Positions 17,051 to 58,016 are shown, counted from the stretch's first letter. The stretch is 64,000 nucleotides of DNA from Candidatus Omnitrophota bacterium (GCA_903901225.1 CAIUQE010000035.1:9249-73248); one strand, 5' to 3'. Made by a program: numbers and translations. Notes: a model not told the origin generated them from the sequence alone.

Positions 17051-17179
17051 AACTCACAACTGGATTTTTTTGTGCCACAAACTTGCATTTTGCTACATTA
17101 TGTGCTATTTTTCTGCTTAAACCACCTATTGACAGATCGACTTTGTTCATAAACCCTTAAATTTTTGAGGATTAATGCC

Positions 17180-33874: not shown

Positions 33875-33889
33875 TTGAGAGAGGGGTAT

Positions 33890-36776: not shown

Positions 36777-36918
36777 CATTAGTAGCCAGGGTTTTTGACG
36801 TATCTTGATACGAGTTCAGAAACCAAGCTTTCCTTAATGCTTTTTTGAAAAAGCTGTTTCTGCTGTTTGAGTAGCAAGATATGTTAAAAACCCGATGGGG
36901 AATATCTAAAAGATAACA

Positions 36919-37458: not shown

Positions 37459-37459
37459 C

Positions 37460-39645: not shown

Positions 39646-39661
39646 CAGGAGTGAACGTGTC

Positions 39662-41370: not shown

Positions 41371-42533
41371 TCCCGCGCGGCGAGGAGCAGAAGAAAGCGG
41401 ATTACAGGGTGCCTTTCGGGACGGTTTCCATAACGCCCAAAGCGCGCCGGCTCATCGATGCGGCGCTGGAAAGCGGCTGGGTGACCAAGGGAAAATATGT
41501 TAAAGAGTTCGAAGAGAAGTTCGCCGCCCTTTTTGGCGTGAAGCACGCGGTCGCGGTCTCCAGCGGCACGGACGCGGACGCGTTGGCGTGCGCGGCGCTT
41601 TATGATCTGGGCGCGCGGCGGGGGGATGAGGTCATCGTCCCCGCGTTGTCATTCGTGGCCACCGGCAACGCGGTTTTTCAGGCGGGACTGACGCCGGTCT
41701 TTGTGGATGTACGGAGGGACACTCTCAATATTGACGTGACGAAGATCGAGGCGAAGATCACCGCCCGCACGCGCGCGATCATGCCCGTGCACCTGATGGG
41801 CAAGCCCGCGGACATGGACGCGGTCAATGCTATTGCCCGCAAGCACGGGTTGAAGGTCATCGAGGACGCGGCCGAGGCGCACGGGGCCGAGTACCGCGGC
41901 CGGAAAGCGGGGGCTATGGGTGACATGTCCTGTTTCAGCCTTTATGCCGCCCATATCATCACGACGATCGAGGGGGGGATGGTCCTGACGGATGACGCGG
42001 CCATCGCTGAGGCCTTGATGTCGCTGCGCAATCACGGGATGACGGGAAAATTTACGTTTGAGCGGATCGGTTTTTCAGCTAAAATGAACGAACTTGAAGC
42101 CGCGGTGGGGCTTGGCAACATGGAGATATTCGCGGACATCCTCTCCCGCCGCCGCAGGAATATGCTTTATCTCATCGAAAAGTTCAAGCGGTTCGACAAG
42201 GTATTCATCACGCTGCGGGAAGAACCTTTTGAGAAGCTTGGCCCGCACGCTTTTTCCATTATCGTGAAAGAGGGGGCGCCTTTTACCAGGGATGAATTCG
42301 TGGCTGGCCTGGAGGCGAACGGCGTGGATTCGAGGAACCTTTTTTATTCCATGCCGACGCAGTGCCCGGGTTACGCGTTCCTGGGTCACAGGCGCGGTGA
42401 TTTTCCCGAGGCTGAATATTGCAGTGACCACGGGACCCATATCGGGATCCATCAGGATATAGGGATCGAACAGCTCGACCATGTGGTCGGTGTCGTGGAA
42501 AAGTTCCTCAAGAGTAAAGGGGTGAATTATTAA
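41367..42533 (+). CDS. DegT/DnrJ/EryC1-family PLP/PMP enzyme, His-for-Lys variant (ColD/E1-like sugar 3-dehydratase candidate)
   Basis: DegT fold. The Schiff-base Lys position reads FSLYAAHIITTIEGG (Ala/His), unlike the paralogue at 55550 (FYPTKGLGAWGDGG). Confidence 0.6.
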   Translation: MIPRGEEQKKADYRVPFGTVSITPKARRLIDAALESGWVTKGKYVKEFEEKFAALFGVKHAVAVSSGTDADALACAALYDLGARRGDEVIVPALSFVATGNAVFQAGLTPVFVDVRRDTLNIDVTKIEAKITARTRAIMPVHLMGKPADMDAVNAIARKHGLKVIEDAAEAHGAEYRGRKAGAMGDMSCFSLYAAHIITTIEGGMVLTDDAAIAEALMSLRNHGMTGKFTFERIGFSAKMNELEAAVGLGNMEIFADILSRRRRNMLYLIEKFKRFDKVFITLREEPFEKLGPHAFSIIVKEGAPFTRDEFVAGLEANGVDSRNLFYSMPTQCPGYAFLGHRRGDFPEAEYCSDHGTHIGIHQDIGIEQLDHVVGVVEKFLKSKGVNY

Positions 42534-44325: not shown

Positions 44326-44333
44326 CGGCCGCG

Positions 44334-45293
44334 ATGAAAAAGATCCTGGCCGTCAGAAACGACCGTTTCGGCGAGTTCCTGCTGAATATCCCGGCATTGC
44401 GGGCGATCAAGGAAACTTATCCCACGGCCGAATTGCATGTGATGGTCGCGCCCGCGGTCGTGGAATTGGCCCGGGCGGTTCCGTTCATTGACAAGATCCT
44501 CGAGCGGCCCTTCGGGCGCCGCGCTTGGGGTGAAGATATCGCGCTGGTCTGGCAGTTGCGGCGCGAACACTATGACGCCGCGATCGTCCTCAACCCGACG
44601 CGGGAAGCGCATCATATTGTTTTTTGGGCCGGTATCCCGTGCCGTATCGGTTACGCGCGCAAGCATCCCTTTTTGCTCAATCGCACCCTGCCCGATAAAA
44701 AACACCTGGGCCTGCGCCACGAGGTGGAGTATAACCTTGAACTCGTTGCCTTGATCGGCGCGGCGACGCAGGATCGTTCTTTGGAGCTGGCGATCCCGGC
44801 TGAGGTCCAAGCCGCGGTTGCCGCCAAATTCGGGATAACGCCCGGCAGTATTGCCGTCCATCCCTGGACGAGCGATCCCGTCAAGCAGTGGCCGCTGGAA
44901 AGGTTCACAGAGTTGGTACGGCGTCTGGCTGAAAAGGAAACCGGCAAGGTCATCATTATCGGTCGACCCGAGCCCTGGCAGATTAGTATTCCCTCCCCCC
45001 GGTGGGGAGGGGTAGGGGAGGGGGGTCGTAACATCCTCGACCTAAGCGGCCGCACAACCCTCCTCGAAACCGCCGCCATCCTGAAGCAATGCCGTTGCCT
45101 CGTGTCGTGCGACAGCGGCCCGGTCCATTTGGCCGCGGCCGTGGGCGCGCGCACCGTGGCGCTTTTTCGCAACGACATACCCGGGAAAAACCCCGAGCGC
45201 TGGGGGCCATGGGGCACGGGCGCGGGGCATGTTGTTGTTCAGGCTGCCGGCGTGGACCGGATCACGGTCGAGGATGTGGCGGGTAAGATTTGA
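44334..45293 (+). CDS. glycosyltransferase family 9 (heptosyltransferase-like)
   Basis: GT9 C-terminal motif LVSCDSGPVHLAAAVGARTVALF. Start taken at MKKILAVRND. Confidence 0.7.
   Translation: MKKILAVRNDRFGEFLLNIPALRAIKETYPTAELHVMVAPAVVELARAVPFIDKILERPFGRRAWGEDIALVWQLRREHYDAAIVLNPTREAHHIVFWAGIPCRIGYARKHPFLLNRTLPDKKHLGLRHEVEYNLELVALIGAATQDRSLELAIPAEVQAAVAAKFGITPGSIAVHPWTSDPVKQWPLERFTELVRRLAEKETGKVIIIGRPEPWQISIPSPRWGGVGEGGRNILDLSGRTTLLETAAILKQCRCLVSCDSGPVHLAAAVGARTVALFRNDIPGKNPERWGPWGTGAGHVVVQAAGVDRITVEDVAGKI
45004..45025 (+). repeat. G-quadruplex motif GGGGAGGGGTAGGGGAGGGGGG preceded by complementary CCCTCCCCCC (inside the GT9 CDS)
   Basis: Four G-tracts of at least 4 nt with 1-2 nt loops. 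Encodes a Gly-rich insertion (PRWGGVGEGGR). Confidence 0.5.
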
Positions 45294-45345
45294 CGGGCCG
45301 CGGGTTACGACTTGGATGTCGGATAAATGCATGTTTGGAGGGGGC

Positions 45346-46200
45346 ATGGAAGATTTGAAACAGTGCGCTGTATGCCAAAGTAAGAGCCTTGCTGTTTTTG
45401 ATAAAACTGGCCATATTAAAATTTGCAAAGAATGCGGGTATAAATTTACAAGTCCGCGGATTGCGACGACGAAAGAAATTTCCGATATGGATCAGAAATA
45501 TGAGCGGGAATTTATAAAGGGTTTTGATCCTGCCCGGGCAGAGCATTTATATTTAAGGCGCGTGGGATTGGTCCGGAAATACCTTTCTCGCGGGGCGATC
45601 CTTGACGTCGGCGCTGGCCCGGGGACTTTTTTATATTTCCTGAAGGCGGCAGGCAACTACCAGTTGCATGGGACCGAAGTTTCACAAGCGTGTGTTGCCT
45701 GCGCAAAGAATGGTCTGGGTGTTTTGTTGGACCAGGGCATATTGGAAGCGATCAGGTATCCTGACGCGTCTTTCGACGGGGTGGTTTTGCTCCATGTGTT
45801 TGAGCATTTGCCGGACCCGGTAGTTACGTTGCGGGAAATTGCGCGGATCCTGAAACCCGGCGGGTTTGTTTTCATTGCTGTTCCGAATGATTCGCTTTTA
45901 GGGCGCAAGGGGTATTTAAGATACGCGCTTCAGAAGTTTGTCGGGATGAGGAAGAAACTGATGTATCCTGATTATGTGAAGGAAGGCAATTGGCACCTTT
46001 CGCATTTCACGCCATCTGTTTTACGCAAGACTTTGGAAGTGGCCGGGTTCTCCGTTAAAGAGGCGACGGTGGATGATGCCTGGGGGGATATTGTCAAGCC
46101 CTGGCATAAGCGGGGCCGACTTACGTTGGCATTGTTGATGAACAAGATATTCGGTTGTATTCTTTATGATGCTCAATTCTTTGTCGGACAGAAAATTTAA
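45346..46200 (+). CDS. class I SAM-dependent methyltransferase with N-terminal zinc ribbon
   Basis: CxxC...CxxC ribbon, then motif I LDVGAGPG and VLLHVFEHL. Start chosen at the Met with a GGAGGG SD. Confidence 0.65.
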   Translation: MEDLKQCAVCQSKSLAVFDKTGHIKICKECGYKFTSPRIATTKEISDMDQKYEREFIKGFDPARAEHLYLRRVGLVRKYLSRGAILDVGAGPGTFLYFLKAAGNYQLHGTEVSQACVACAKNGLGVLLDQGILEAIRYPDASFDGVVLLHVFEHLPDPVVTLREIARILKPGGFVFIAVPNDSLLGRKGYLRYALQKFVGMRKKLMYPDYVKEGNWHLSHFTPSVLRKTLEVAGFSVKEATVDDAWGDIVKPWHKRGRLTLALLMNKIFGCILYDAQFFVGQKI

Positions 46201-46270
46201 AGGCTCCGGCATGAAAAGACTCGACGTGAGTTGTTCAAGGGACAAAGTCAAGGGTTCCGTGCAGGGAGCG

Positions 46271-47050
46271 ATGCCAAAAATATCCGTTGTTATCATTACA
46301 AAGAATGAAGAACCGCGTATCAGGAAAGCGTTGGCGTCTGTGCGTTCATTCGCCGATGAAATTGTTGTTGTCGACGATATGTCCACGGACTGTACGCGTG
46401 AGATCGCGGCGCGGGAGTTCCAGGCTAAAGTTTTTCAGCGGCCGCTGGAAAAGGATTTTGCCGCCCAGCGTAATTTCGGCGCCCAACAGGCGTCATCCGC
46501 GTGGATTTTTCCCATGGATGCCGACGAGTTCATTTCCGATGCGGTGGGCGCCAGGATCAGGGAGGCGATCGGGGCCGCGGGTGACACGGCGGCCTTTGAG
46601 TTGCGGCGCCTGAATTATTTTGTCGGAAGTCCTATTCGCCACGCCGGCGCGTATGGTTATTACGTCAGGCTTTACCGGAAAGACTGCGTCGCTTACCATG
46701 GCCCCGTGCATGAACAACTTGAGGTCAGGGGAGTTGTTAGCCGTATCGACGGAGATATCTGTCATTATCCTTTTGAAACATTGGCACCATTCTTTGATAA
46801 GGCTGTCCGTTACGCCGAACAGGAGGCCGAGCTTTATTGCCAGGCGCGGCCCCATGTCAGCGCGAAAGAGATCCGTTACCATTTGACGTGGAGGCCTTTG
46901 AAAACATTCTGGAAGATCTATGTCAGAAAAAAAGGGTACAGGGACGGTTTGCCCGGGCTTGTCTGGTGTGTCGGCAATGTCATCGGCCCGCTGATCAAAT
47001 GGATGAAGATCTGGGAGAAGGCGGAGCGGTCCGGGTTGCTGGCGCCTTGA
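46271..47050 (+). CDS. glycosyltransferase family 2
   Basis: ISVVIITKNEE...VVVDDMSTD GT-A motifs. Paralogue of the 56647 gene. Confidence 0.7.
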   Translation: MPKISVVIITKNEEPRIRKALASVRSFADEIVVVDDMSTDCTREIAAREFQAKVFQRPLEKDFAAQRNFGAQQASSAWIFPMDADEFISDAVGARIREAIGAAGDTAAFELRRLNYFVGSPIRHAGAYGYYVRLYRKDCVAYHGPVHEQLEVRGVVSRIDGDICHYPFETLAPFFDKAVRYAEQEAELYCQARPHVSAKEIRYHLTWRPLKTFWKIYVRKKGYRDGLPGLVWCVGNVIGPLIKWMKIWEKAERSGLLAP

Positions 47051-47059
47051 AAGGAAACA

Positions 47060-47773
47060 ATGGAAGATAATGCACGCGCGTATCACATCAATGAGCCGGT
47101 CTTTGTCCGGACAAAAAAGAAGTTCAATTTCGGTAAACTTGCGTATGAAAGATACGTGAAGGCGGTATTCATCAATGAACGGATCATTGAGTTGCCGTTC
47201 GTTATTCAGGGGCTCGCTTCACTCAAGCGGGGAGCAGCTGTCCTCGATGTGGGGTGTATGGAAAGCCTGTTGCCGATGCAACTCGCCGGGCTGGGTTATC
47301 ATGTGACAGGCCTGGATTTCAGGAAATACCCTTTCTTTTTCCCTGGCCTTGATCTTGTCCAGGCGGATGCGACAAAAATGCCGTTGGTCGACCGGTCATT
47401 TGACGCGGTGACGTGCGTTTCAATGATCGAACATGTGGGGCTTGGTCATTATCAGGACCCTTGCCATCATCCTGATGCCGATGCGGACGTTGTCCGTGAA
47501 TTTGAGCGTGTGTTGAAGCCGGGGGGGCTCCTGTTATTGTCAGTGCCTTTTGGTGTCCTGACAACAGGGGTGGTTCAGCGGACGTATGACGCGGCGCGCC
47601 TCAAGAAAGCGCTTGGCGCTTTCCTTGTTGAGGAAAAAAGATATTATATCCAGCGCCGTGACCAACAGCATCTGAATGATTTTTGGCAGGAATGCGACGA
47701 GCCGGAAGCTTCCGGAGTACAGGCTGTTGATAAAACGGCGTGCGTGTGCCTGATAAAAGCCAGGAAGCCGTGA
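47060..47773 (+). CDS. class I SAM-dependent methyltransferase (DUF268-like)
   Basis: AAVLDVGCMES motif I and downstream methyltransferase motifs. Confidence 0.6.
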   Translation: MEDNARAYHINEPVFVRTKKKFNFGKLAYERYVKAVFINERIIELPFVIQGLASLKRGAAVLDVGCMESLLPMQLAGLGYHVTGLDFRKYPFFFPGLDLVQADATKMPLVDRSFDAVTCVSMIEHVGLGHYQDPCHHPDADADVVREFERVLKPGGLLLLSVPFGVLTTGVVQRTYDAARLKKALGAFLVEEKRYYIQRRDQQHLNDFWQECDEPEASGVQAVDKTACVCLIKARKP

Positions 47774-47777
47774 TCTT

Positions 47778-48935
47778 ATGCGTATTGGTTTTGATGCGAG
47801 AATATTGACATTGCCAAGATGCGGAGGGGTGACTGTTTTTTTGCGACTCCTGGAACATCTTCCGTTGTTAGATGATCAGTTGGAGCTTGTACTTTTTTTC
47901 CCTCGGCCTTTTTTGCCGGAGTATCAGAGATACTTGAAACATGACCGGATCGTTTGTGTCCAGGTTGCGGAGCGCGTCAGCGATATAAGCCGTTGGCCCA
48001 ACAGACAATTGTCGCCCCTTCTTCGGGAGCAAAGGATTGATATTTTTCATCAACCGTTCAATGCGGATGGCCCGTTCTTTTGCGCTCCTTGTCCTGTTGT
48101 TGTAACGATCCATGACCTGATCCCGTGGGTGATACCAGGTATTTTTCGCAAGGCCGTTAAGGCGCTACGTTATAAAGTCAGGAATATACTTTGGGCACAT
48201 GCCGCGGCAAGAGTACACACGGTCTCTGAAACCAGCAAATTCGATATTATGCGGCTTTGCCGGGTGCCTGCGACGAAAGTCCTGGTAACGCACCTGGGGG
48301 CTGATGACATCTATAGTTGCGCAATTGCTCCAGGAGAAGAGCAGGAGATCCTTCAGCGGTACAGTCTTGTGGGAAAAAGATATGTGGTTAACATGGGGGG
48401 GCTCAATCAATTGAGGCGAAACCCTGATTTCATTATTGAAGGGTTTGCAAGGTACCTGGACCGGACGGGCGACGATAGTTTTTTGGTTATTACAGGGCAA
48501 GTTCTTAAACAAGATGGTTTTTTTGATCGGGTGAAGGCTAAGATGGTGAAAGAGGGCATAAATGATCGTGTCATACTCACAGGATTCCTTTCCAACAAGG
48601 AGTTGAAAGTTGTCCTGTCGCATGGACTGGTATCAGTTGTTACATCGCTCTATGAGGGGTTTTGCTTGCCTTTGACCGAATCTTTTTCATGTGGAATTCC
48701 AACAATTGCCAATCACGCCGGCTCTATTCCTGAGATCGCAGGCGATGCGGCTATATTGGTGGATCCTCGGAAACCTGATGAGTTGGCAGGACATTTGCAG
48801 TTGTTGATGCAGGATGAGAATAGGCGCGCGGTATTGTCACGTCAAGGAAGAGAGCGGGTTAAACAGTTTCGTTGGGATGAAATGGCCCGGGGAGTCCTGG
48901 CCATGTATCATTCTGTCGGAAGATCGAGAGCCTGA
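47778..48935 (+). CDS. glycosyltransferase family 1/4 (GT-B)
   Basis: GT4 C-terminal domain with the E..E motif (SLYEGFCLPLTESFSCGIP). Confidence 0.8.
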   Translation: MRIGFDARILTLPRCGGVTVFLRLLEHLPLLDDQLELVLFFPRPFLPEYQRYLKHDRIVCVQVAERVSDISRWPNRQLSPLLREQRIDIFHQPFNADGPFFCAPCPVVVTIHDLIPWVIPGIFRKAVKALRYKVRNILWAHAAARVHTVSETSKFDIMRLCRVPATKVLVTHLGADDIYSCAIAPGEEQEILQRYSLVGKRYVVNMGGLNQLRRNPDFIIEGFARYLDRTGDDSFLVITGQVLKQDGFFDRVKAKMVKEGINDRVILTGFLSNKELKVVLSHGLVSVVTSLYEGFCLPLTESFSCGIPTIANHAGSIPEIAGDAAILVDPRKPDELAGHLQLLMQDENRRAVLSRQGRERVKQFRWDEMARGVLAMYHSVGRSRA

Positions 48936-48937: not shown

Positions 48938-49792
48938 ATGCTGTTCCGTAAAAAGACACCCGTCATTGAGTATCCGGATTCGGTGCAGATCGAAACGACC
49001 AACCGCTGCAACGGGCGGTGTGTTTTTTGTCCGCATCCACGGATGAAGCGCCCCTTGATGGATATGTCCGACGAGGTGTTCGCGAAACTGATCCGCGACG
49101 TTAAAGAACTCAAGGTGAAGTCCATCCAGCCTTTTGTCAACGGCGAGCCTTTCATGGACCGTAATATTTTTGAGCGGCTCCTGCTCATCAACCGTGAATT
49201 GCCCGGGGTGAAGATCGTCATTTATACCAATGGCGCCTTGCTTACCGCCGACAAGTTGCAGAAACTTGCGGCGGTCAAAGACATTGATGTGATGAACTTT
49301 AGCCTTAACGGGATCGATGCCGCGGATTATCATGAGCGGGTGGGACTTAATTTTGAAAAGACCGTCGCTAATATCAAGGAATTCTTGCGCTTGAACAGGG
49401 AATTGAATTTCGTGCGCGAGGTCTGCGTCGCTTCGGTTGAGCCGGGCAATGGCAGCAAGGCGCAGGACAAGGCTTATAATGACGCCTTTACCCGTTTTTG
49501 CCACGCGAATTTTCCGGGCGTCCAGGTGAAGATCGGGTACAAGTATAACTGGCTTTCCCGGGTTTTCAGCCTCCGGCGGTTCCGCAATATTTTCTGCCCC
49601 CGCTTGAAGGCCATGATCGTCCTGGCCAATGGGCTGGTGGCGCTGTGTTGCATGGACATGGAGGGCGAATTCATTCTTGGCAACGCGCAGGAGCGTTCAC
49701 TGCTGGATATTTACAACGGGATCCTGGCGCGTGAATACCGGCATCACCGCAAGGCACATATGGTGCCATGCCGCACGTGCAACATGATCTAG
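48938..49792 (+). CDS. radical SAM enzyme with SPASM/twitch C-terminal domain
   Basis: CNGRCVFC CxxxCxxC cluster and C-terminal Cys motifs (LCCMD...CRTC). Paralogue of the 52573 gene. Confidence 0.75.
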   Translation: MLFRKKTPVIEYPDSVQIETTNRCNGRCVFCPHPRMKRPLMDMSDEVFAKLIRDVKELKVKSIQPFVNGEPFMDRNIFERLLLINRELPGVKIVIYTNGALLTADKLQKLAAVKDIDVMNFSLNGIDAADYHERVGLNFEKTVANIKEFLRLNRELNFVREVCVASVEPGNGSKAQDKAYNDAFTRFCHANFPGVQVKIGYKYNWLSRVFSLRRFRNIFCPRLKAMIVLANGLVALCCMDMEGEFILGNAQERSLLDIYNGILAREYRHHRKAHMVPCRTCNMI

Positions 49793-49806
49793 GTGAAAGG
49801 GAACAG

Positions 49807-50550
49807 ATGTTCAAGACAGGTGTTTTCCGGGAATTGTGCGCGATCAGCGCGGGCATTGAAGGTTTTCTGACAGATCGTGAAGGCTGGTTGCTCTATCAAT
49901 TGGCCCGCAGGGCTTCCGGTGGATGTATCGTTGAGATCGGTTCATGGCAGGGTAAATCCACGGTTTGGATCGGGTTGGGCGCGAAGGCCAGCGCGTCTCA
50001 CGGCGAACCCTCCAGGGTTTATGCCATTGATCCTCATACCGGTTCCGAAGAACATCAGAAACCGGGTGAGAAGATCTGGACGTTGGAACGGTTCAAGGCC
50101 AATATCAGTCGTAACGGGCTTGACAGGATCGTTACGCCCATCGTGGAGCGCGCGCATAATGCCCGCCGTGCTTTTGAACAGCCTGTCAGCCTGCTTTTCA
50201 TTGACGGAGCGCATGATTACGATTCGGTCAAACAGGACTATGAGCTTTGGGCGCCGCTGGTGGTGGAGGGCGGGTATATCGTGTTCCATGATACCCAGCA
50301 GGCCGGCGTGAAGAAATTTGTTGATGAGATTATCCCCACAGGGCCCTTCGCGAAGGTTTATTTCCAGGATACCATCTGTTATGGGAAAAAAGTGGTGCGG
50401 CATTCTTCCGTTGATGCTTTTCGCGGCCGCGCCATGATCCGGCTGAAAAACGAGTTCCTGGATGTCTGCGACGGGGCGGTTTCGAAGGAACATAAAAAAT
50501 GGGTCAAACAGCGGGTCAAGTTCGTGCGCGCGCTATTGACGATCCTGTGA
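49807..50550 (+). CDS. class I SAM-dependent O-methyltransferase (TylF/MycF/CmcI-like)
   Basis: GCIVEIGSWQGKST and LLFIDGAHDYDSV motifs. Confidence 0.7.
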   Translation: MFKTGVFRELCAISAGIEGFLTDREGWLLYQLARRASGGCIVEIGSWQGKSTVWIGLGAKASASHGEPSRVYAIDPHTGSEEHQKPGEKIWTLERFKANISRNGLDRIVTPIVERAHNARRAFEQPVSLLFIDGAHDYDSVKQDYELWAPLVVEGGYIVFHDTQQAGVKKFVDEIIPTGPFAKVYFQDTICYGKKVVRHSSVDAFRGRAMIRLKNEFLDVCDGAVSKEHKKWVKQRVKFVRALLTIL

Positions 50551-50562
50551 CAATGAGGAGCC

Positions 50563-51720
50563 TTGATGAGAATTGCCTTTGATGCGGTGAGCCTGACCCG
50601 GGAGCGTTCGGGCGTGGCGAATTATCTCACGCGCCTTGTGCGCCGGCTGGTTGAGATCGACCCGGACCTTCAGGTTGTCTTGCTGGCGCCTGACAAGATC
50701 TGTGTGGAGTACGACCTTTTTATCCGTCATCCGCGGATCAGGCGGGTGGTGGTGGACCTGCCGCGTGCCGGGCGGAAAAAGTGGGCGTCAACGCACCTGC
50801 CCCGCCTTCTGAAGGAGCATGGCATTGACCTTTTTCACCAGCCCGGCGGCATGGACGTGGCGCTCTTTCGTTCGCCCTGCCCGATGGTCCTTACCGTTCA
50901 CGATATGGCGCCCTGGGTGTTGAGTACTTTCAAGGATTGGCGCCGGGCGCTGCGTTATAAATTGCGCAGCCTTGTTTGGGCGCACCAGGCGGCCAGGATC
51001 CTCACGGGAGTCGAGGTGAGCCGCAAGGACATTGTCCGGTTATGCCGCGTCCCGGCGGACAAGGTCGCCGTCACGCCGTACGGGGCGGAGCCTGTGTATG
51101 AAGGCGAGATCAAGGCCGGTGAGGCGGATGACATCCTGCGCAAGTACCGTTTGCTCGGGAAAAGGTATGTCGTTAATTTTTCCGGATTGAATTATAAACG
51201 GCGTAACATTGACCTTGTGCTCGACGGCTTCGCGCGTTTCCACCGTGAGGTTCCCGATGACGTGACGCTTGTTTTTACCGGGCCTGTGGCCAACGCGCAA
51301 GGCGCGTACGACCGGGCCCAGCGCAAGATGGGCATCCTCGGCATCCGCGAGCGCGTGGCCACGACCGGGTTCATGAACGAGAAGGCTCTGCAGGTGGTCA
51401 TTGAGAATGCCGAGGCGGCGATCGTGACCTCCCTGCATGAGGGATTCCCCCAGTCGATGGTCGAGGCGTTCGCTTCCGGCACGGCGGTCATTGCCACGGA
51501 CCGGGGCGGCGTGCCCGAGGTGGCGGGCGAGGCCGCGATCATCATTGACCCATACGACCCCGCGGCCCTGGCCGACGCGCTCAAACGCTTGCTCGGCAAT
51601 TCCGTCGACCGTGAACTTTATGTTGAACGGGGTTACGGCTGCATCCGTGCCTTGACCTGGCAGCGGACCGCCCGTGAGACGCTCAATGCCTACCGTTCCG
51701 TCCTGAAGGTCAGCGCATGA
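50563..51720 (+). CDS. glycosyltransferase family 1/4 (GT-B)
   Basis: GT4 C-terminal domain (SLHEGFPQSMVEAFASG). Confidence 0.8.
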   Translation: MMRIAFDAVSLTRERSGVANYLTRLVRRLVEIDPDLQVVLLAPDKICVEYDLFIRHPRIRRVVVDLPRAGRKKWASTHLPRLLKEHGIDLFHQPGGMDVALFRSPCPMVLTVHDMAPWVLSTFKDWRRALRYKLRSLVWAHQAARILTGVEVSRKDIVRLCRVPADKVAVTPYGAEPVYEGEIKAGEADDILRKYRLLGKRYVVNFSGLNYKRRNIDLVLDGFARFHREVPDDVTLVFTGPVANAQGAYDRAQRKMGILGIRERVATTGFMNEKALQVVIENAEAAIVTSLHEGFPQSMVEAFASGTAVIATDRGGVPEVAGEAAIIIDPYDPAALADALKRLLGNSVDRELYVERGYGCIRALTWQRTARETLNAYRSVLKVSA

Positions 51721-52592
51721 AGATCGCCCTCGTCTATGACCGCGACAGCCGCGTGGGGGTCGGGGAAAGATGCCGGCGCGTGCTGGAGCATCAGCCCGGG
51801 CTTCAGGTCTCTCAGTTCGACCTGAAAGAGATACGGCAGGTCACGGGGGGGTTTGACCTTTATCTGCGCCTGGACGACGGGGATTACGCGGCGCCGTTCC
51901 CTGCCGGCCTGCATCCTTACGCGTGGTGGGTGGCCGATACGCATTTGAAACATCCCTTGCGCTGCATCATCCGCAATGCCCCCGACTGTGACGCGCTTTT
52001 TTGTTTCCAGAAAGAAGGCGCCTGGGAGGTTTCCCGTGCCACAGGGAGGCTGGCGCGCTGGCTTCCGCCGGCGTGTGATCCAGTAAATCCGTCGTCTGCT
52101 TTTGTTCCTCATTCTCAGCGGCGCTGGGATATCGCTTTTGTCGGGACGACGGGAAAATATACCCTGCGCAAGGTGGTGCTGGAACTCATTAAAAGCGGCT
52201 ATCCCAACGCCTTCATCGGGACAGCCCATCACAGCGAACTTTTTTCGATCTATTCCCAGGCCAGGATCGTCGTCAACTACGCGATCAACAATGACCTCAA
52301 CATGCGCATTTTTGAAGCCATGGCGGCCGGGGCTTTGGTCCTCAACAACAGGATCAAGGACAACGGTTTTGAAGATATCTTTTCACCCGGCCAAGACTGT
52401 GTTGTCTTTGACGACCCGACGACCGGGGAGCTGAAGCGGCTGATCGACCATTATCTGTCCCATCGCGAAGACGGGGAACGGATCGCCCGGGCCGGGTTCA
52501 CCCTGGCAGAGCGGCACACGTACCGGGAAAGGCTCCGGGAGATAGGGCGGATCGTTCTCAACAGGGGGGCGCGTGAAGCTGATTTCTTTTAA
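51717..52592 (+). CDS. CgeB-family glycosyltransferase-like protein
   Basis: C-terminal NMRIFEAMAAGALVL motif typical of the CgeB/DUF3880 family. Confidence 0.5.
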   Translation: MKIALVYDRDSRVGVGERCRRVLEHQPGLQVSQFDLKEIRQVTGGFDLYLRLDDGDYAAPFPAGLHPYAWWVADTHLKHPLRCIIRNAPDCDALFCFQKEGAWEVSRATGRLARWLPPACDPVNPSSAFVPHSQRRWDIAFVGTTGKYTLRKVVLELIKSGYPNAFIGTAHHSELFSIYSQARIVVNYAINNDLNMRIFEAMAAGALVLNNRIKDNGFEDIFSPGQDCVVFDDPTTGELKRLIDHYLSHREDGERIARAGFTLAERHTYRERLREIGRIVLNRGAREADFF

Positions 52593-53631
52593 CAAAAGAA
52601 TGTACCAGCTGTTCAAGGTGTTTTACAAATTGACCGGGCAGTGCCGGAAGATGGACGATCATTTTCTCGTCGAGAGGTTTGTGGATTCTCTCCAGCGGCT
52701 GCATTTCACGCAGCAAGGGGCTTCGGCGGCGGAACGGCGGGATTTCTTCAGGAAGCATCTTGTGGAGATCGAGGTGGAAACGCATGGGTATTGCAACCGC
52801 ACATGTTCTTTTTGCCCCAACGCGCATTTCAGCCGTGCCGACAAGTCTCAGATCATGCCGGAGGATGTTTTTGACCGGATCATTGCGCAATTGAAGTCCA
52901 TTGATTATGCTCATACGTTGAAACTGCATCGTTATAATGAACCGCTGGCGCTCGATATCATTTTCGACCGCATCCGCCGCGCGCGCCGGGAATTGCCGCG
53001 GGCGCGGATAGGGTTCCATTCCAACGGCGACTATGTCACCGCGGAAAAACTGAAGGAACTGGAGTCCGCGGGCCTTGATTTTGTGATCATCGGCATGTAC
53101 CTTGACGCAGCGGGGAGCCGTGAAGCGCTGCTGGCCGAAGCCAAAGACCGATGTCGGGAATTTCTCCGGCGGAGGGATCTTGAGGCGCATGAGGTCCCCG
53201 CGGATGGGGCGCTGGTGCGTTACCGTGTCCGTATGGAGAAGCTCCAGGTTGCCATGTTCGTGCCGGATGTCGCCAGCCAGTGGAACGACCGCGGCGGCAC
53301 GTTGAAAAGTTATGCCAGGCACGCCCGCGTGTCGCCCTGCGAAAGTCCCTTTGGCAGGCTTTTGGTCGACTGGACCGGAGATGTCCTGCCGTGCTGTAAT
53401 TTGAGAGGGGATGTCGCGGCGCACAAGCCTTATATCCTCGGCAACGCGGCCACAACCGCGCTCGAAGACATTTATTTTTCCGGTGTTGCCAATGGATTGC
53501 GGCGGAAGCTTGCCGGTTTTGACATCAAGGAAGGGGCCTGCCGGACCTGCCACTACGCGTCGTTCCCGCAGGATGATGGGTACAAGGCGCTGGTTGAAAA
53601 GAAGATCCGTAAACTTGATATTGATCAATGA
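52573..53631 (+). CDS. radical SAM enzyme with SPASM domain (second copy)
   Basis: CNRTCSFC cluster and C-terminal Cys motifs (LPCCN...CRTCH). Confidence 0.75.
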   Translation: MKLISFNKRMYQLFKVFYKLTGQCRKMDDHFLVERFVDSLQRLHFTQQGASAAERRDFFRKHLVEIEVETHGYCNRTCSFCPNAHFSRADKSQIMPEDVFDRIIAQLKSIDYAHTLKLHRYNEPLALDIIFDRIRRARRELPRARIGFHSNGDYVTAEKLKELESAGLDFVIIGMYLDAAGSREALLAEAKDRCREFLRRRDLEAHEVPADGALVRYRVRMEKLQVAMFVPDVASQWNDRGGTLKSYARHARVSPCESPFGRLLVDWTGDVLPCCNLRGDVAAHKPYILGNAATTALEDIYFSGVANGLRRKLAGFDIKEGACRTCHYASFPQDDGYKALVEKKIRKLDIDQ

Positions 53632-53644
53632 AGGAGAGGCCGGA

Positions 53645-54301
53645 ATGAGCGAAGATTTCAGGATGTGGAAAAAGAAGAACCTGCCGGGATTAAGGGCGCT
53701 GGTCAGGTCGGTCCGTTATATTTTCAAAAGGCCCCGCTGGTTTTTTCAGCGGGAGATCATGAAGAACAGCATTTTTATTTCCGAGTTTGAGATCGCCGAG
53801 GCGTCGCTTTTTCCGCGCCGGGTCATTGACCGGGTCATTGATATGTTCCGTCCGTCGTCCGTCCTGGACCTGGGATGCGGGGTGGGCCGGGCGCTGGAAT
53901 ATTTTCATGATCGCGGGATAGATGTCCAGGGCGTGGAGGGGTCTGAACTGGCCATATCCAAAGCGAAGTATCCCGACAAGATCCTTCAGTATAATCTTGA
54001 GAAAGAACTCAACCTCAAGAAGCGGTTTGACCTCATCTGGTCATTTGAATTTGTCGAGCACATCCATCCCAAATATGTAGATAACCTGCTAAAAACTTTT
54101 TCAAACCATTCCGATAAGGTTGTTGTTTCCGCCGCGCCTCCGGGGCAGGGGGGCGACGGTCATTTTAATGAACAGCTTCCGGTTTACTGGATAGAAAAGT
54201 TCAAACAATACGGTTATGCATTCGACCAGCCAAGGTCTGAAGAGCTGCGCAAGCTGGAAGACAGTTACAGCCAAAACCTTATTGTTTTCGAAAGAAAATG
54301 A
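53645..54301 (+). CDS. class I SAM-dependent methyltransferase
   Basis: Perfect AAGGAGAGG SD and motif I VLDLGCGVGRA. Confidence 0.65.
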   Translation: MSEDFRMWKKKNLPGLRALVRSVRYIFKRPRWFFQREIMKNSIFISEFEIAEASLFPRRVIDRVIDMFRPSSVLDLGCGVGRALEYFHDRGIDVQGVEGSELAISKAKYPDKILQYNLEKELNLKKRFDLIWSFEFVEHIHPKYVDNLLKTFSNHSDKVVVSAAPPGQGGDGHFNEQLPVYWIEKFKQYGYAFDQPRSEELRKLEDSYSQNLIVFERK

Positions 54302-54494
54302 TCTCTGTGGGAATTAGAGGCGGGAGAGGATCGTCGGGTATGAAAATTTCCACGCATTGTGTGGCCATTGGAATGGGATCAAAGTTCAACTTCATGTCGC
54401 CTGTATGGTTTTATCGTTCAAAATACGAGCGCTGGGCCATCCTGCGCGTGTGCGGCATTTATTTCTGGTTCGTCGTCAAGGAGTTCAAAATATT

Positions 54495-55553
54495 TTGAAA
54501 AAAGTCCTGATCGTCAACCCTTTCGGCATCGGGGACGTGCTGTTCACGACGCCTTTGATCGCGGCCCTCAAGCGCCGGGAGCCCGGCATATCCATCAGTT
54601 TCGTCGGGAACGCCCGCACCGCGCCCTTCCTCAGGAATGACCCCCGCCTTGACCGGGTTTTTTCCTATGAACGTGATGAATTCGTCGCGGTCTATAAAAG
54701 ATCGCCGTGGCAGTTCCTCCTGAAATGGAAAGCGTTCACGGCAGAACTGTATGCCGGGCATTTTGATACCGCGTTCGACCTTTCCATGGGGTCCCCCGTC
54801 GGAGCGGCGCTGATGCTGGCCGGGATCCCGGCGCGCGTCGGATATGACTACAAGGGCCGCGGGCGGTGGTTGACCCGCAAGGTCCCGCTCAAAGGCTATG
54901 AAGGCCGGCACGTGGCCGCGCATTATCTGGACCTTCTTGAGCCCCATCCCGGTAACGAAGACCGCATGGCCTTGTTCGTTCCCGAAGCTGACAAGGCCTG
55001 GGCCGGAGAGTTCATGGCACGTCACGGGTTGGGGGATAACGCCTTCATCGTCATGTTCCCGGGTGGCGGGGCAAGCTGGGGGCAGGGGGCCGGCATGAAA
55101 CGCTGGCCGCCGGAAGGCTACGCGCGATTGGCAGAGAAAATAATTGAAAGATCAAAGTGCCCCATTATACTGATGGGGGACCAAAGCGAGCTGGAGCTTT
55201 GCCGTCATGTCGCCGGGTCAGCTTCAAGTCCGCTGGTAGCGGTGGCGGATCCGACGAGCCTGACGCGGGCCGCGGCGCTGATGCGCCGGGCAAGGTGCGC
55301 TGTTGTCAACGATGGCGGCCCGTTGCACGTGGGGGTGGCCTGCGGCGCGCGGACAGTTTCGATCTTTGGCCCTGTCGACCCCGTGGTTTACGGGCCTTAC
55401 CCGCCGGGGAAAGATCACCGGGTGGTGACCAAAGGGCTGCCCTGCCAGCCGTGTTACAGGAATTTTCGCGTGTCAGGGTGCGATCATCAGAGTTGTTTGA
55501 GAACATTAACCATGGATGAGGTCTACAGGGCCTTGGAGGAGTTCGTCTCATGA
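54495..55553 (+). CDS. glycosyltransferase family 9 (heptosyltransferase-like), second copy; TTG start inferred
   Basis: N-terminal KKVLIVNPFGIGDVLFTTP and C-terminal NDGGPLHVGVACGARTVSIFG GT9 motifs. Confidence 0.65.
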   Translation: MKKVLIVNPFGIGDVLFTTPLIAALKRREPGISISFVGNARTAPFLRNDPRLDRVFSYERDEFVAVYKRSPWQFLLKWKAFTAELYAGHFDTAFDLSMGSPVGAALMLAGIPARVGYDYKGRGRWLTRKVPLKGYEGRHVAAHYLDLLEPHPGNEDRMALFVPEADKAWAGEFMARHGLGDNAFIVMFPGGGASWGQGAGMKRWPPEGYARLAEKIIERSKCPIILMGDQSELELCRHVAGSASSPLVAVADPTSLTRAAALMRRARCAVVNDGGPLHVGVACGARTVSIFGPVDPVVYGPYPPGKDHRVVTKGLPCQPCYRNFRVSGCDHQSCLRTLTMDEVYRALEEFVS

Positions 55554-56647
55554 GCGTGCCGTTCATTGATTTTACCGAACAGAATAAAATGATCCGCAAG
55601 GCGGTCGACGCGGGGCTTGAACAGGTGATCGCGAAAGCGTCATTCATCATGGGGCCGGAAGTGAAGAAATTCGAGGATGAGTTCGCGGCTTTTTGCGGCG
55701 TGAAATACGCGGTGGGCGTGAATTCCGGGACGGACGCGCTGTACCTTGCTTTGGCGGCCATGGGTGTCGGGGAAGGTGACGAGGTGATCCTGCCGACGTT
55801 CACGTTCATCGCCACGGCCCTGTGCGCGTCTTATACGGGCGCCCGGGTCAAGTTCGTGGACATCGATGAGCATTCCTACAATATGGACCCCGCGAAGCTG
55901 GAGCAGGTGATCACGCCGCGGACCAAGGTCATCATTCCCGTGCACCTTTACGGGCAGATGGCGAACATGGACGAGATCCTGGCGGTCGCCCGCCGGCGCG
56001 GCGTGGCGGTGCTCGAGGACGCCTGCCAGGCGCACGGCACGCGTTACAAGGGCCAGCGCAGCGGGTCCATGGGCAACGGCGGTTGTTTCAGCTTTTATCC
56101 GACCAAGGGCCTGGGCGCCTGGGGCGACGGCGGCATGGTCGTGACCAATGACGCGAAACTGGCCGAGATGGTGCGGATGCTCAGGGATTACGGGCGCACG
56201 GACCGTTATGCCCACAAGTTCAAGGGGCACAACTCGCGGCTGGACACGGTGCAGGCCGTTGTGCTTTCGGAGAAGTTGAAACACCTGGACGCGTGGAACA
56301 GCTTGCGCCAGACGGTGGCCGGATATTACGCCAGGCACCTTGCCGGATCGGGGATCATTGTGCCGCAGACACTGCCTGACCGGGAGCATGTCCATCAGAC
56401 CTATGCCGTCCGCCTGAAGGACCGCGCCCGCGTGCTGGACCGGCTGAAGGAGAAAGGCGTCACCGCGCTGATCCATTACCCCATACCGATCCATCTGCAG
56501 GAAGCATACGCCGACGCCGGATTCAAGGCGGGGGATTTTCCTGTTTCCGAGAAAGTCGCTGACGAGATCCTGTCGCTGCCCATGTTCCCGCACATGACGG
56601 AGGCCCAGGTCATTGAGGTTGCTGCCGCGCTCAAGGGAGCCCTGTAA
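55550..56647 (+). CDS. DegT/DnrJ/EryC1-family aminotransferase (canonical Lys)
   Basis: PLP lysine in FYPTKGLGAWGDGG and full DegT fold. Confidence 0.85.
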   Translation: MSVPFIDFTEQNKMIRKAVDAGLEQVIAKASFIMGPEVKKFEDEFAAFCGVKYAVGVNSGTDALYLALAAMGVGEGDEVILPTFTFIATALCASYTGARVKFVDIDEHSYNMDPAKLEQVITPRTKVIIPVHLYGQMANMDEILAVARRRGVAVLEDACQAHGTRYKGQRSGSMGNGGCFSFYPTKGLGAWGDGGMVVTNDAKLAEMVRMLRDYGRTDRYAHKFKGHNSRLDTVQAVVLSEKLKHLDAWNSLRQTVAGYYARHLAGSGIIVPQTLPDREHVHQTYAVRLKDRARVLDRLKEKGVTALIHYPIPIHLQEAYADAGFKAGDFPVSEKVADEILSLPMFPHMTEAQVIEVAAALKGAL

Positions 56648-57420
56648 TGTTCCCAGTACCGGTGGCGGTCGTCATCATCGCGAAGAATGAAGAAGACAAT
56701 ATGGAGGCCTGCATCCACAGCGTCAAGGGGTGGGCCGCCGAGATCATCGTGGTCAATGACAATTCCACGGACCGCACGGTGGCCATTGCCGAGGCCTGCG
56801 GCGCCGTTGTCCATCATCGCACGATGGACAATGAGGGCATCCACCGCAACTGGGCCGCGGCCCGGGCGACGAGCGCGTGGGTCCTCTATCTTGACGCGGA
56901 CGAACGCGTGACGCCGGAGCTTCGCCGGGAGATCGATGCGGTGCTGCCCGGCACAGCGCACGTGGCCTTTGCCATACCGTTCAAGACCTATATCGGCAAT
57001 TACTGGGTGGACCATTCCGGATGGTACCCGGGGTCGAAGACCAGGCTGGTCCTGAAAAGCAAATTCCGTTATGAGGAGGCACCAGTCCATCCGCGCGTGT
57101 TCCACGAGGGGACCTGCGGGCATTTGACCGGGGATATCGTGCATTACGGTTATCCTGACCTGGCGCATTTTCTCGCCAGCCTTAATCGCCAGACGACGCT
57201 GGAAGCGCAGAAGTGGGTCGATACCGGACGGCGCATGTCCATGCTCGCGGGATTTTGGCGCATGGTCGACCGGTTCTTCCGTTCCTATATCGGCAAGGGC
57301 GGCTGGAAGGGCGGGTTCATGGGTTTTGTGATCGCTTATTTCGCCTCGCTGTACCAGGTCATGAGCTACATCAAATATTACGAGATCATCAAAGGCATCA
57401 AAGAGCCCGTGAAAAAATGA
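56647..57420 (+). CDS. glycosyltransferase family 2
   Basis: VAVVIIAKNEE...IIVVNDNSTD GT-A motifs. Confidence 0.75.
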   Translation: MFPVPVAVVIIAKNEEDNMEACIHSVKGWAAEIIVVNDNSTDRTVAIAEACGAVVHHRTMDNEGIHRNWAAARATSAWVLYLDADERVTPELRREIDAVLPGTAHVAFAIPFKTYIGNYWVDHSGWYPGSKTRLVLKSKFRYEEAPVHPRVFHEGTCGHLTGDIVHYGYPDLAHFLASLNRQTTLEAQKWVDTGRRMSMLAGFWRMVDRFFRSYIGKGGWKGGFMGFVIAYFASLYQVMSYIKYYEIIKGIKEPVKK

Positions 57421-58016
57421 AAGTTGTTTTTGTTGATAGAGATGGCGTGATCAATGAATTTCCCGGCAACGGCCTTTATGTCACCAACGTCAAGGATTTT
57501 CATTTCATCCCGCGTTCCATGGAAGCGCTGAAATTGTTGACCGACGCCGGGTACCATATTTTCGTGATATCGAACCAGGCGGGTGTCGGCAAAGGGGTAT
57601 TCACCCACGACAAGCTCCGGCGCATCACGCAGCGCCTGCACGATGGCGCGGCCCGGGCCGGAGCGCGTATCACCGGGGTCCATTACTGCACCTGCAAGTC
57701 GACGGACGGGTGCAATTGCCGCAAGCCGCGCGTCGGCAATATCCTCAAGGCGCTTGCCTCCGTCGGGGGGAGTGACGCGGACGCGCGCGACGCGTATTTT
57801 GTGGGGGATACCGAGATCGACATCAAGGCCGGGAAGAATGCCGGATGCAAGACGGTCTTTGTCCTGTGCGGGCGTGAAGACCGGGCGTACATGAAGCGCT
57901 GGGATATCAGGCCCGACCATATAGCAAAGGACCTTTATGAAGCCGCAAAACTCATCATCGCCCGGGATACTGATCATCCACGCGACCGCGGGCGCCGGGC
58001 ATCGCAAGGCCGCTGA
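57417..58016 (+). CDS. gmhB: D-glycero-D-manno-heptose 1,7-bisphosphate phosphatase-like HAD-IIIA phosphatase
   Basis: VFVDRDGVIN motif I, ISNQ, and the Zn motif H..C.C.DGCNCRKP. The 3' end overlaps the next gene by ~80 nt. Confidence 0.65.
   Translation: MKVVFVDRDGVINEFPGNGLYVTNVKDFHFIPRSMEALKLLTDAGYHIFVISNQAGVGKGVFTHDKLRRITQRLHDGAARAGARITGVHYCTCKSTDGCNCRKPRVGNILKALASVGGSDADARDAYFVGDTEIDIKAGKNAGCKTVFVLCGREDRAYMKRWDIRPDHIAKDLYEAAKLIIARDTDHPRDRGRRASQGR

Follow-up and report, generated by a model that had tools for sequence, protein, structure and literature searches.

The 64,000-nt stretch of Candidatus Omnitrophota DNA studied here (GCA_903901225.1 CAIUQE010000035.1:9249-73248; the window) contains two genes for radical SAM proteins that lie among genes for glycosyltransferases and methyltransferases. 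Do the two enzymes tailor a glycan, and if so by what reaction, or do they mature peptides, with the glycan context being coincidental? A sequence-only reading had described them as paralogous SPASM-type enzymes that act on sugars, with no precursor peptide gene nearby, and had listed epimerization, dehydration and the formation of an unusual C-C or C-O bond as possible reactions.

Two Radical SAM Proteins Encoded in an Envelope Operon

Both open reading frames are present on the plus strand where that reading had placed them, rSAM1 at 48938-49792 (284 aa) and rSAM2 at 52573-53631 (352 aa), and both proteins carry the cysteine motifs that it had pointed out. In rSAM1 these are, in this order, CNGRCVFCP, ALCCMD, ILGNA and PCRTCN; their counterparts in rSAM2 are CNRTCSFCP, LPCCNL, ILGNA and ACRTCH. 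The CX3CX2C signature (C24, C28 and C31 of rSAM1, plus strand, 49007-49030; C74, C78 and C81 of rSAM2, plus strand, 52792-52815) was read from the rSAM1 sequence, is invariant in alignments A2 (rSAM1) and A1 (rSAM2), and is predicted to provide the ligands of the SAM-binding [4Fe-4S] cluster. The Pfam Radical_SAM model (PF04055, cut-off 29.5 bits) matched rSAM1 with 68.3 bits and rSAM2 with 41.8 bits, and AF2 models of both proteins (mean pLDDT of 95.2 for rSAM1) matched known radical SAM structures. Thus, by motif, Pfam match and fold, rSAM1 and rSAM2 belong to the radical SAM superfamily.

A full-length BLASTP alignment of the two proteins shows 27% identity (E 6e-16), and a profile-profile alignment made with hhalign (probability 99.9%, E 5.8e-35) spans 254 columns and brings all cluster cysteines into register. 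At the same time, rSAM2 scores as well against BtrN, a characterized enzyme discussed below, as it does against rSAM1. These alignments indicate homology far above chance and an old divergence, and speak against a recent duplication; the two proteins are paralogous at most as representatives of two sister subfamilies that separated long ago.

The two genes are part of a tightly packed plus-strand operon with LptD, MsbA, GT9, GT4, GT2 and methyltransferase genes. According to Pfam, its upstream half includes genes for an MsbA-type ABC exporter, a GT9 glycosyltransferase, a methyltransferase, a GT2 glycosyltransferase and another methyltransferase (42547-47773), followed by a GT4 glycosyltransferase gene (Glycos_transf_1 and Glyco_transf_4; 47778-48935) that ends 2 nt 5′ of rSAM1. 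Directly 3′ of rSAM1 is a gene for a Methyltransf_24 protein (CmcI/rhamnosyl O-methyltransferase-like; 49807-50550), for which inspection of start codons and Shine-Dalgarno sequences favors a start at 49807 over 49768, in agreement with the 247-aa gene call. It is followed by a second GT4 gene (50563-51720) and a gene for a CgeB-like glycosyltransferase-like protein (Glyco_trans_1_2, 83 bits; 51717-52592) that overlaps the start of rSAM2 by 20 nt. A class I SAM methyltransferase gene (53645-54301), whose real start at 53645 is preceded by a GGAG Shine-Dalgarno sequence, is located 3′ of rSAM2, and next comes a trio of genes for GT9 (heptosyltransferase family), DegT aminotransferase and GT2 (54357-57420) that is conserved in the related loci L001, L002 and L009. 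Between 42.5 and 58 kb, gaps between consecutive genes, as listed, range from -221 to +55 nt; the largest real gap, upstream of GT9b, is at most ca. 190 nt. The interleaving with GT4 and methyltransferase genes noticed in the sequence-only reading is therefore real, and it extends to GT2 and GT9 genes. There are two DegT genes in the operon, located three and eight genes from the nearest radical SAM gene, the nearer one being three genes from rSAM2.

The Cysteine Complement Indicates a Twitch Domain

The Pfam SPASM model matched both proteins above its gathering score (47.2 bits for rSAM1 and 37.9 bits for rSAM2). However, the seven-cysteine SPASM pattern CX9-15GX4C-gap-CX2CX5CX3C-gap-C is found in neither of them; both have C...GX4C(C)...CX2C only. 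In rSAM1, this set consists of C220, G232-X4-C237, the extra C238 and C278-X2-C281 (plus strand, 49595-49780), and in rSAM2 of C256, G269-X4-C274, the extra C275 and C323-X2-C326 (plus strand, 53338-53550). C220, C237, C278 and C281 of rSAM1 are invariant in alignment A2, where C238 is kept in at least 90% of sequences, and all five cysteines of rSAM2 are invariant in alignment A1. Beyond CX2C, rSAM1 continues for just 3 residues, and the last 26 residues of rSAM2 hold no further cysteine.

The ligand cysteines at the C-terminus thus number four per protein, which suffices for a single auxiliary cluster. In alignments with BtrN, obtained both with phmmer and with profiles, which span the C-terminal domain, all four are aligned with auxiliary-cluster ligands. 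Judged by these alignments, both enzymes are of the twitch subclass, with one predicted auxiliary [4Fe-4S] cluster each, and the cysteine count rules out a full SPASM domain with two. The SPASM model is matched nevertheless, since its span includes the twitch part, so the label "SPASM-type" holds for the Pfam match and fails for the cluster content. Assignments to specific NCBIfam families (tungsten-cofactor maturase, spiro-SPASM, MoaA and others) were discarded, all matches being far below cut-off and limited to the generic core.

Gene Context of Relatives and the Peptide Maturation Alternative

The rSAM1 orthologue of locus L001, also from Omnitrophota, lies between two GT4 genes, with the same arrangement of the upstream GT4 gene, in a syntenic locus extending from MsbA to PriA. 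Orthologues of rSAM2 adjoin GT2/GT4 and GT9 genes. In 37 of about 70 loci of distant relatives, a large glycosyltransferase cluster is found within three genes on either side, and glycosyltransferase and methyltransferase families are the most frequent immediate neighbors. Moreover, of the 20 family members that reach 550 aa or more, 14 carry a fused GT2, GT99, GT8 or WavE domain, and in one protein (P0221) an rSAM1-type radical SAM enzyme is naturally fused to Methyltransf_24.

These data bear on the alternative that rSAM1 and rSAM2 are maturases of a ribosomally synthesized peptide (RiPP) or a protein, and that the glycan context is a coincidence. One could expect as much from the match to the SPASM model, from the presence of EpeE, SuiB, anSME and SkfB among structural neighbors, and from weak NCBIfam matches to maturase families, yet no NCBIfam maturase model was matched at cut-off. 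Genes around rSAM1 and rSAM2 overlap or are 2-55 nt apart, so that a precursor gene would not fit between them, and a small-ORF check found no precursor-peptide gene or free small ORF there, confirming the earlier observation as far as sequence allows. Neither the two proteins nor the scanned neighbors gave a Pfam match to an RRE/PqqD or peptidase domain, and the MsbA-type ABC protein is devoid of a C39 peptidase domain. Since, in addition, relatives from different phyla keep the glycan context and family members are fused to glycosyltransferases, we consider peptide or protein maturation highly improbable and rejected it.

We therefore conclude that rSAM1 and rSAM2 very probably tailor a glycan in an envelope operon. 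This conclusion is based on four lines of support that are independent of each other: BtrN as the closest solved structure, the conserved glycan context, the glycosyltransferase fusions, and the absence of precursor, RRE and protease genes. The same evidence supports the earlier proposal that the two proteins are sugar-active enzymes of the glycan cluster.

A Second Cysteine Next to the Predicted Auxiliary Cluster

Both proteins have BtrN as their closest solved structure (PDB 4m7t and 4m7s). It was the best Foldseek match of rSAM1 (E 2.5e-13); an rSAM1 family profile searched against the PDB retrieved BtrN with E 1e-33 and EpeE second with E 2e-14, and the twitch domain alone retrieved BtrN as its sole match (E 0.17). 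BtrN is the 2-deoxy-scyllo-inosamine dehydrogenase of the butirosin pathway, i.e., it acts on an aminocyclitol, and its partner in the aminoglycoside antibiotic cluster is a DegT-family aminotransferase. Although close to BtrN in sequence and structure, the window enzymes are encoded in an LPS-type envelope operon without aminotransferase coupling, and rSAM2 has a conserved N-terminal extension of ca. 60 residues, predicted to be all-helical, that BtrN lacks.

Alignment of rSAM2 with BtrN reveals a further difference. Besides a common motif just upstream of the twitch cysteines (DRGG in rSAM2, invariant and including R240; NRGG in BtrN), LPCC of rSAM2 stands against LPCF of BtrN. As can be seen, a Phe of BtrN occupies the position at which rSAM1, rSAM2 and their families have a second cysteine. 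The residue that follows the G-X4-C ligand is Cys in all 70 full-length relatives, and of 145 top representatives 129 have Cys there. Judging from this conservation, rSAM1 and rSAM2 would not share the lack of an enzyme H-atom donor that characterizes BtrN-type dehydrogenases.

A Cys-Cys pair is also present in the twitch radical SAM peptide epimerase EpeE (YydG) of Bacillus subtilis (PDB 8ai1-8ai6). EpeE has a twitch-type domain that holds a single auxiliary cluster, as is predicted for rSAM1 and rSAM2, and it shares their G-X4-C-C motif. A phmmer alignment places C237/C238 of rSAM1 on C222/C223 of EpeE, though the whole-protein match is weak (E 7e-5) and the pair lies at the extreme end of the aligned stretch. 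The second of these EpeE cysteines, C223, is an experimentally supported H-atom donor located beside the auxiliary cluster (PMC13012085). In the window enzymes, the motif would likewise position a conserved cysteine for H-atom delivery next to the predicted auxiliary cluster. There are also differences: EpeE epimerizes Ile and Val residues at C-alpha, within a ribosomal peptide whose gene is adjacent, whereas rSAM1 and rSAM2 have a glycosyltransferase context and no peptide gene, Asp210 of EpeE is not conserved in them, and overall identity is only 11-16%.

Twitch enzymes that act on carbohydrates include the epimerases NeoN (neomycin) and HygY (hygromycin B) and the dehydrogenase SpeY, the last of which was among the structural matches. 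NeoN and HygY, which we liken to the window enzymes by description, set a precedent for radical epimerization of an unactivated sugar carbon, for action on a glycosylated intermediate and for an enzyme cysteine as H-atom donor; unlike rSAM1 and rSAM2, they and SpeY belong to the antibiotic secondary metabolism of actinomycetes. The donor of NeoN, Cys249, is found in the context D248-C249-Y250, and so is not adjacent to a cluster ligand. NeoN was therefore dropped as a precedent for the Cys-Cys pair, and, as its donor stands outside such a pair, the position of the donor cysteine is not universal. According to a title cited in PMC10991966, mutation of one cysteine converts the HygY epimerase into a dehydrogenase.

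Because the conserved extra cysteine aligns with the H-donor cysteine of EpeE, epimerization is now favored among the chemistries listed by the sequence-only reading; that list had omitted keto-sugar oxidation, which emerges as the main rival. With a confidence that falls somewhat short of even, we propose that rSAM1 and rSAM2 are radical sugar epimerases of core oligosaccharide assembly, and that C238 of rSAM1 and C275 of rSAM2 serve as their H-atom donors. Either cysteine of the pair could be the one that ligates the cluster.

The Cys-Cys Class Is Seldom Linked to DegT Aminotransferases

Oxidation would proceed as in BtrN: a sugar hydroxyl would become a keto group while the electron leaves via the auxiliary cluster, and the ketone would then be a substrate for a DegT aminotransferase of the operon, or for another enzyme that reduces or methylates it. 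No other characterized enzyme is nearly as close to the window enzymes as BtrN, which shares with them the N/D-R-G-G motif and many residues of the core, and the operon contains two DegT aminotransferases. The motif, which in rSAM2 is compatible with oxidation, and the two DegT genes also count against epimerization. In a sister class of radical SAM proteins (Lawsonia type), linkage to DegT is tight: when the second cysteine is replaced by Asn or Ala, a DegT gene is found within two genes on either side in 26 of 35 loci.

This linkage, however, is a property of proteins without the second cysteine that rSAM1 and rSAM2 possess. Within the same distance, DegT genes were found in only 3 of 28 loci of Cys-Cys members and in 1 of 68 loci of the rSAM2 family. 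For 26 of 35 against 3 of 28 loci, the Fisher p is 1.5e-6 when relatives are clustered at 90% identity and 1.7e-3 when they are clustered at 50%; the correlation is partly phylogenetic, since the Asn class is essentially one clade. Furthermore, locus L001 keeps the GT9-DegT-GT2 trio without rSAM2. Co-occurrence thus gave no support to a dehydrogenase that would feed the operon's own DegT proteins, and this coupling was rejected. Given also the Phe that BtrN has in place of the extra cysteine, we regard dehydrogenation in general as possible but rather unlikely.

Some other radical reaction on a sugar is, in our estimate, unlikely. It might be dehydration or deamination (DesII/AprD4-like), decarboxylation of a uronic acid (BlsE-like) or formation of a C-C or C-S bond (AbmM-like). 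DesII, BlsE and AbmM are among the structural matches, a UDP-glucose dehydrogenase (Ugd) gene of the operon, at 33875-35224, could provide UDP-glucuronate for decarboxylation, and several invariant Arg residues of the rSAM2 family would suit an anionic substrate.

Proposed Epimerase Mechanism

If rSAM1 and rSAM2 are epimerases, they would function as BtrN-like twitch enzymes, with one SAM-binding and one auxiliary [4Fe-4S] cluster, that act on a sugar while a glycan of the LPS-core type is being assembled. The reduced SAM-binding cluster would cleave SAM, and the resulting 5′-deoxyadenosyl radical would take a hydrogen atom from a ring carbon, probably one of the CH-OH type, of a sugar that is probably already attached by a neighboring glycosyltransferase. 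C238 of rSAM1 or C275 of rSAM2 would then return a hydrogen atom to the opposite face, inverting the center, and the adjacent auxiliary cluster would re-reduce the thiyl radical. In this way, with neither NAD nor O2, each enzyme may introduce one rare epimer into the core oligosaccharide.

Distribution and Implications

The very large family of twitch radical SAM proteins that probably tailor glycans comprises more than 1000 clusters at 50% identity; culturable carriers include Azospirillum, Ciceribacter, Brachyspira hyodysenteriae and Edwardsiella tarda, in the last of these on a plasmid. As a more doubtful extension of the epimerase proposal, the residue that follows G-X4-C may be a natural switch, Cys specifying an epimerase and Asn or Ala a dehydrogenase that feeds DegT. 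Radical epimerization after glycosylation, often by enzymes fused to glycosyltransferases, might then be a widespread and hitherto unrecognized way of making the rare sugars of LPS, capsules and lipooligosaccharides (LOS), also in pathogens such as Brachyspira, Lawsonia and Helicobacter, and the two window enzymes might epimerize two different residues of one core oligosaccharide.

To our knowledge, the radical SAM enzymes that epimerize or dehydrogenate sugars all come from a few antibiotic pathways (BtrN, NeoN, HygY and SpeY). If the proposal is true, it would explain how anaerobes, like many other bacteria, come to have unusual epimers at positions beyond the reach of NAD-dependent nucleotide-sugar epimerases. 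The many proteins from O-antigen, capsule and LOS loci that are annotated only as "radical SAM/SPASM domain-containing protein" would receive a name, and a one-residue rule (Cys-Cys versus Cys-Asn) would predict the reaction outcome from sequence.

Homologues of rSAM1 with the same twitch layout (E ca. 1e-18 to 1e-20) are encoded on pBHWA1, the 36-kb plasmid of Brachyspira hyodysenteriae. As in the window, several paralogues are found in one glycan cluster, seven copies being located amid rfb, epimerase and glycosyltransferase genes, though here they are plasmid-borne and the host is a pathogenic spirochaete. Our literature search for radical SAM enzymes that modify sugars of LPS or capsules found no paper except for one on these genes, which reports only a correlation with virulence in B. 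hyodysenteriae (PMC4267127). At the diagnostic position, the pBHWA1 copies have Cys-Cys in three cases, and then C-A, C-Y and C-Q.

Sequence Features of the Two Radical SAM Proteins

Both plus-strand ORFs that the sequence-only reading described as radical SAM enzymes, rSAM1 (48938-49792, 284 aa) and rSAM2 (52573-53631, 352 aa), pass the Pfam Radical_SAM and SPASM thresholds, and the motifs quoted for them were found. Since they align over their full length (27% identity end to end, E 6e-16) and their family profiles match in profile-profile alignment (probability 99.9%, E 5.8e-35), the two proteins are homologous; the term "paralogous" thus holds for old sister subfamilies rather than for recent duplicates.

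Eight cysteines are conserved in both families (CX3CX2C, a single C, G-X4-C-C and CX2C). The C-terminus of rSAM1 lies three residues past CX2C, and rSAM2 has no further cysteine. The CX5CX3C...C part, to which the second auxiliary cluster of a true SPASM domain binds, is missing from both proteins, which rules out a full SPASM domain with two auxiliary clusters and makes the label "SPASM-type" imprecise beyond the Pfam match. Alignments place four of five C-terminal cysteines in register with the auxiliary-cluster region of BtrN, the 2-deoxy-scyllo-inosamine dehydrogenase (butirosin). Judged by their cysteine set, rSAM1 and rSAM2 are predicted twitch enzymes with one auxiliary cluster. The AF2 models are confident (mean pLDDT 95.2 for rSAM1 and 92.7 for rSAM2). 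Residues 1-60 of rSAM2 (52573-52752) form an extension that is conserved in the close rSAM2 subfamily and predicted to be all-helical; it has no Pfam match, is present in neither BtrN nor rSAM1, and may serve to bind the substrate or a partner.

The Envelope-Glycan Operon

Envelope-glycan genes run nearly without gaps on the plus strand between ca. 31.7 and 59 kb of the window. The first block comprises LptD, UDP-glucose dehydrogenase and an SDR epimerase/dehydratase. Also on this strand lie a split or truncated PDH-E1-alpha-like thiamine enzyme (36165-36776), a 179-aa protein that matches no family (36919-37458), a second SDR (37460-38407), the third radical SAM protein, which belongs to the B12-binding class B (38407-39645), and, 3′ of it, an HddA-like kinase, an HddC-like nucleotidyltransferase and an RfbH/PseC-like DegT aminotransferase. 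This sub-cluster (36165-42533) resembles a biosynthetic pathway for an unusual nucleotide sugar and is kept in the syntenic Omnitrophota locus L001 and in part in another locus, L009; the best NCBIfam matches of its radical SAM protein (HpnJ, BchE, AprD4) are all well under the cut-offs.

An MsbA-type ABC exporter, GT9, methyltransferase, GT2, methyltransferase and GT4 genes precede rSAM1 in this order on the plus strand. rSAM1 is followed by Methyltransf_24, GT4 and Glyco_trans_1_2 genes, and rSAM2 by methyltransferase, GT9, DegT, GT2, GmhB-like phosphatase and MGDG-synthase-like glycosyltransferase genes, all plus-strand, with PriA and Fmt at the end of the run. Neighbouring operon genes overlap or are spaced by 2-55 nt. 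Mechanical starts appear too far upstream in ORFs 44214-45293, 49768-50550, 53411-54301 and 57213-58016; when the likely true starts, 44334, 49807, 53645 (with a GGAG Shine-Dalgarno) and 57417, respectively, are used, apparent long overlaps with preceding genes vanish.

Since the remainder of the window holds housekeeping genes, DnaK and DnaJ among them, it is chromosomal DNA. The closest homologues and the syntenic locus come from MAGs labelled Candidatus Omnitrophota. Two giant ORFs, 2947-6819 (1290 aa, a C-terminal HATPase_c as sole domain) and 17165-21202 (1345 aa, TPR repeats only), are located in stretches with a clearly lower G+C, 0.43-0.48 against 0.55-0.60 elsewhere.

Association with Glycan Genes across Genomes

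In another Omnitrophota MAG, the rSAM1 orthologue is flanked by a GT4 gene on either side within the same MsbA-to-PriA-Fmt order, and rSAM2 is missing from that genome. Orthologues of rSAM2 are located 3′ of GT2 or GT4 genes and 5′ of GT9-DegT-GT2, and distant relatives in Ciceribacter, Edwardsiella and deltaproteobacterial contigs adjoin capsule, GT2, Wzx, acyltransferase and GDP-sugar genes. When each species was represented by one genome, a scan retrieved 316 relatives from many phyla; profile searching against 1.84 billion representatives retrieved 1293 clusters at E<=1e-30. The commonest immediate neighbours belong to the GT2, GT1, methyltransferase, Glyco_trans_1_2 and GT29 families, and one large glycosyltransferase cluster is at most three genes away in 37 of about 70 loci.

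Of the 21 highest-ranking members that reach 550 aa or more, 20 were scanned for fusions. The radical SAM module is fused to GT2, GT99, GT8+GT2 or WavE in 14 of these 20 and to a methyltransferase in two, one of them with Methyltransf_24. The latter, P0221 (598 aa), is a natural fusion mirroring the adjacent rSAM1/Methyltransf_24 gene pair (48938-50550), which suggests a shared sugar substrate for these two proteins.

No precursor peptide, RRE or protease was found at the locus in a Pfam scan of neighbours and in the intergenic gaps, which bears out the earlier statement on precursors and makes a peptide maturase very improbable. Together with the glycosyltransferase fusions and the context kept in orthologues and distant relatives, this makes the proposed glycan-tailoring role of rSAM1 and rSAM2 well supported.

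Ulosonic-acid transferases are fused to or adjoin several members: P0140 and P0157 carry a GT99 beta-Kdo transferase domain, and others occur in locus L003 (5489-9913) and as +1 neighbours in L024, L026, L034 and L044. Neighbours of this type include a giant KpsC/KpsS-like Capsule_synth protein and GT29 sialyltransferase-like genes; on an Edwardsiella tarda plasmid, a BNR sialidase-like protein takes this place. Some family members may act on Kdo- or sialic-type sugars.

Known Relatives and Proposed Chemistry

BtrN is the best solved match to both proteins by every method used: phmmer (E 1e-20 for rSAM2 and 9e-10 for rSAM1), family profile (E 1e-33) and Foldseek (E 2e-16 and 2.5e-13, respectively). 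No NCBIfam model matched rSAM1 or rSAM2 at its cut-off, and RefSeq labels the homologues solely "radical SAM/SPASM domain-containing protein".

Where BtrN has Phe after the G-X4-C ligand, rSAM1 and rSAM2 have a second Cys (C238 and C275). Among solved enzymes, this G-X4-C-C motif was found in just one, the Bacillus subtilis peptide epimerase EpeE/YydG; phmmer aligns C237/C238 of rSAM1 with its C222/C223 (weak whole-protein match, E 7e-5). Cys223 of EpeE lies beside the auxiliary cluster, on the side of the substrate that faces away from SAM, and donates an H atom that quenches the substrate radical; the resulting thiyl radical would, as proposed, be re-reduced by the auxiliary cluster (PMC13012085, PMC5682303). 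The sugar epimerase NeoN requires Cys249 as H donor (PMC10991966, PMC5682303), and HygY is described, in a title cited in PMC10991966, as a twitch epimerase in which mutating one Cys reveals dehydrogenase activity. Unlike the Cys-Cys pair, the NeoN donor stands in a D-C-Y context, so the donor position is not universal.

The second Cys is present in rSAM1, rSAM2, all 70 full-length relatives of the genome scan and 129 of the top 145 representatives. From the several radical sugar chemistries listed earlier, this conservation and the EpeE alignment now favour epimerisation through the second Cys, tentatively the best single mechanistic reading; other radical sugar chemistry ranks lower and is rather unlikely. 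Each of the two genes lies directly 3′ of a glycosyltransferase gene, which, with the fusions, suggests that the substrate would be a glycosylated intermediate, as with NeoN, rather than a free nucleotide sugar.

The Second Cysteine and DegT Aminotransferases

BtrN-like oxidation, to which the closest solved match would point, was weighed against the occurrence of DegT within ±2 genes in 80 metagenomic loci obtained by mixed-alignment retrieval. DegT is present in 26 of 35 loci with Asn or Ala after the ligand Cys and in 3 of 28 with Cys, as well as in 1 of 68 Cys-Cys loci of the rSAM2 family (genome scan). Fisher p values after enzyme clustering are 1.5e-6 (90% identity), 3e-5 (70%) and 1.7e-3 (50%). 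Because nearly all of the Asn class forms a single clade, the contrast is no more than suggestive that members without the second Cys follow BtrN logic (oxidation, then transamination), whereas Cys-Cys members, including rSAM1 and rSAM2, do not. Oxidation ranks next after epimerisation and is possible but doubtful for rSAM1 and rSAM2.

On Lawsonia intracellularis plasmid 2 (L087, 8274-14740), an acetyltransferase gene is followed by a radical SAM gene with "LCN" and by DegT. This locus and metagenome loci L090-L135 share one conserved module: a twitch enzyme whose ligand Cys is followed by Asn, a DegT aminotransferase and an AsnB-like amidotransferase, in many cases joined by an acetyltransferase or methyltransferase. 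The module recurs with twitch enzymes just 33-55% identical and with DegT on either side of them. By analogy with BtrN/BtrS, it looks like an O2-/NAD-independent route to an amino sugar.

While the fold, cofactors and proposed chemistry are already known, the setting in envelope glycans, not antibiotic pathways, the size of this uncharacterised family with its glycosyltransferase fusions, and a one-residue signature dividing two genomic-context classes are new.

Seven radical SAM genes of the same kind, five of them consecutive (10855-16105), lie among rfbABCD, glycosyltransferase and rhamnan-synthesis genes (7270-20028) of the 36-kb Brachyspira hyodysenteriae plasmid pBHWA1 (NC_012226.1). Three of these paralogues have Cys-Cys at the G-X4-C ligand, and others have C-A, C-Y and C-Q. 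Reduced-virulence strains lack a part of this block that contains three of the radical SAM genes, and part of the block thus shows a correlation with swine-dysentery virulence (PMC4267127).
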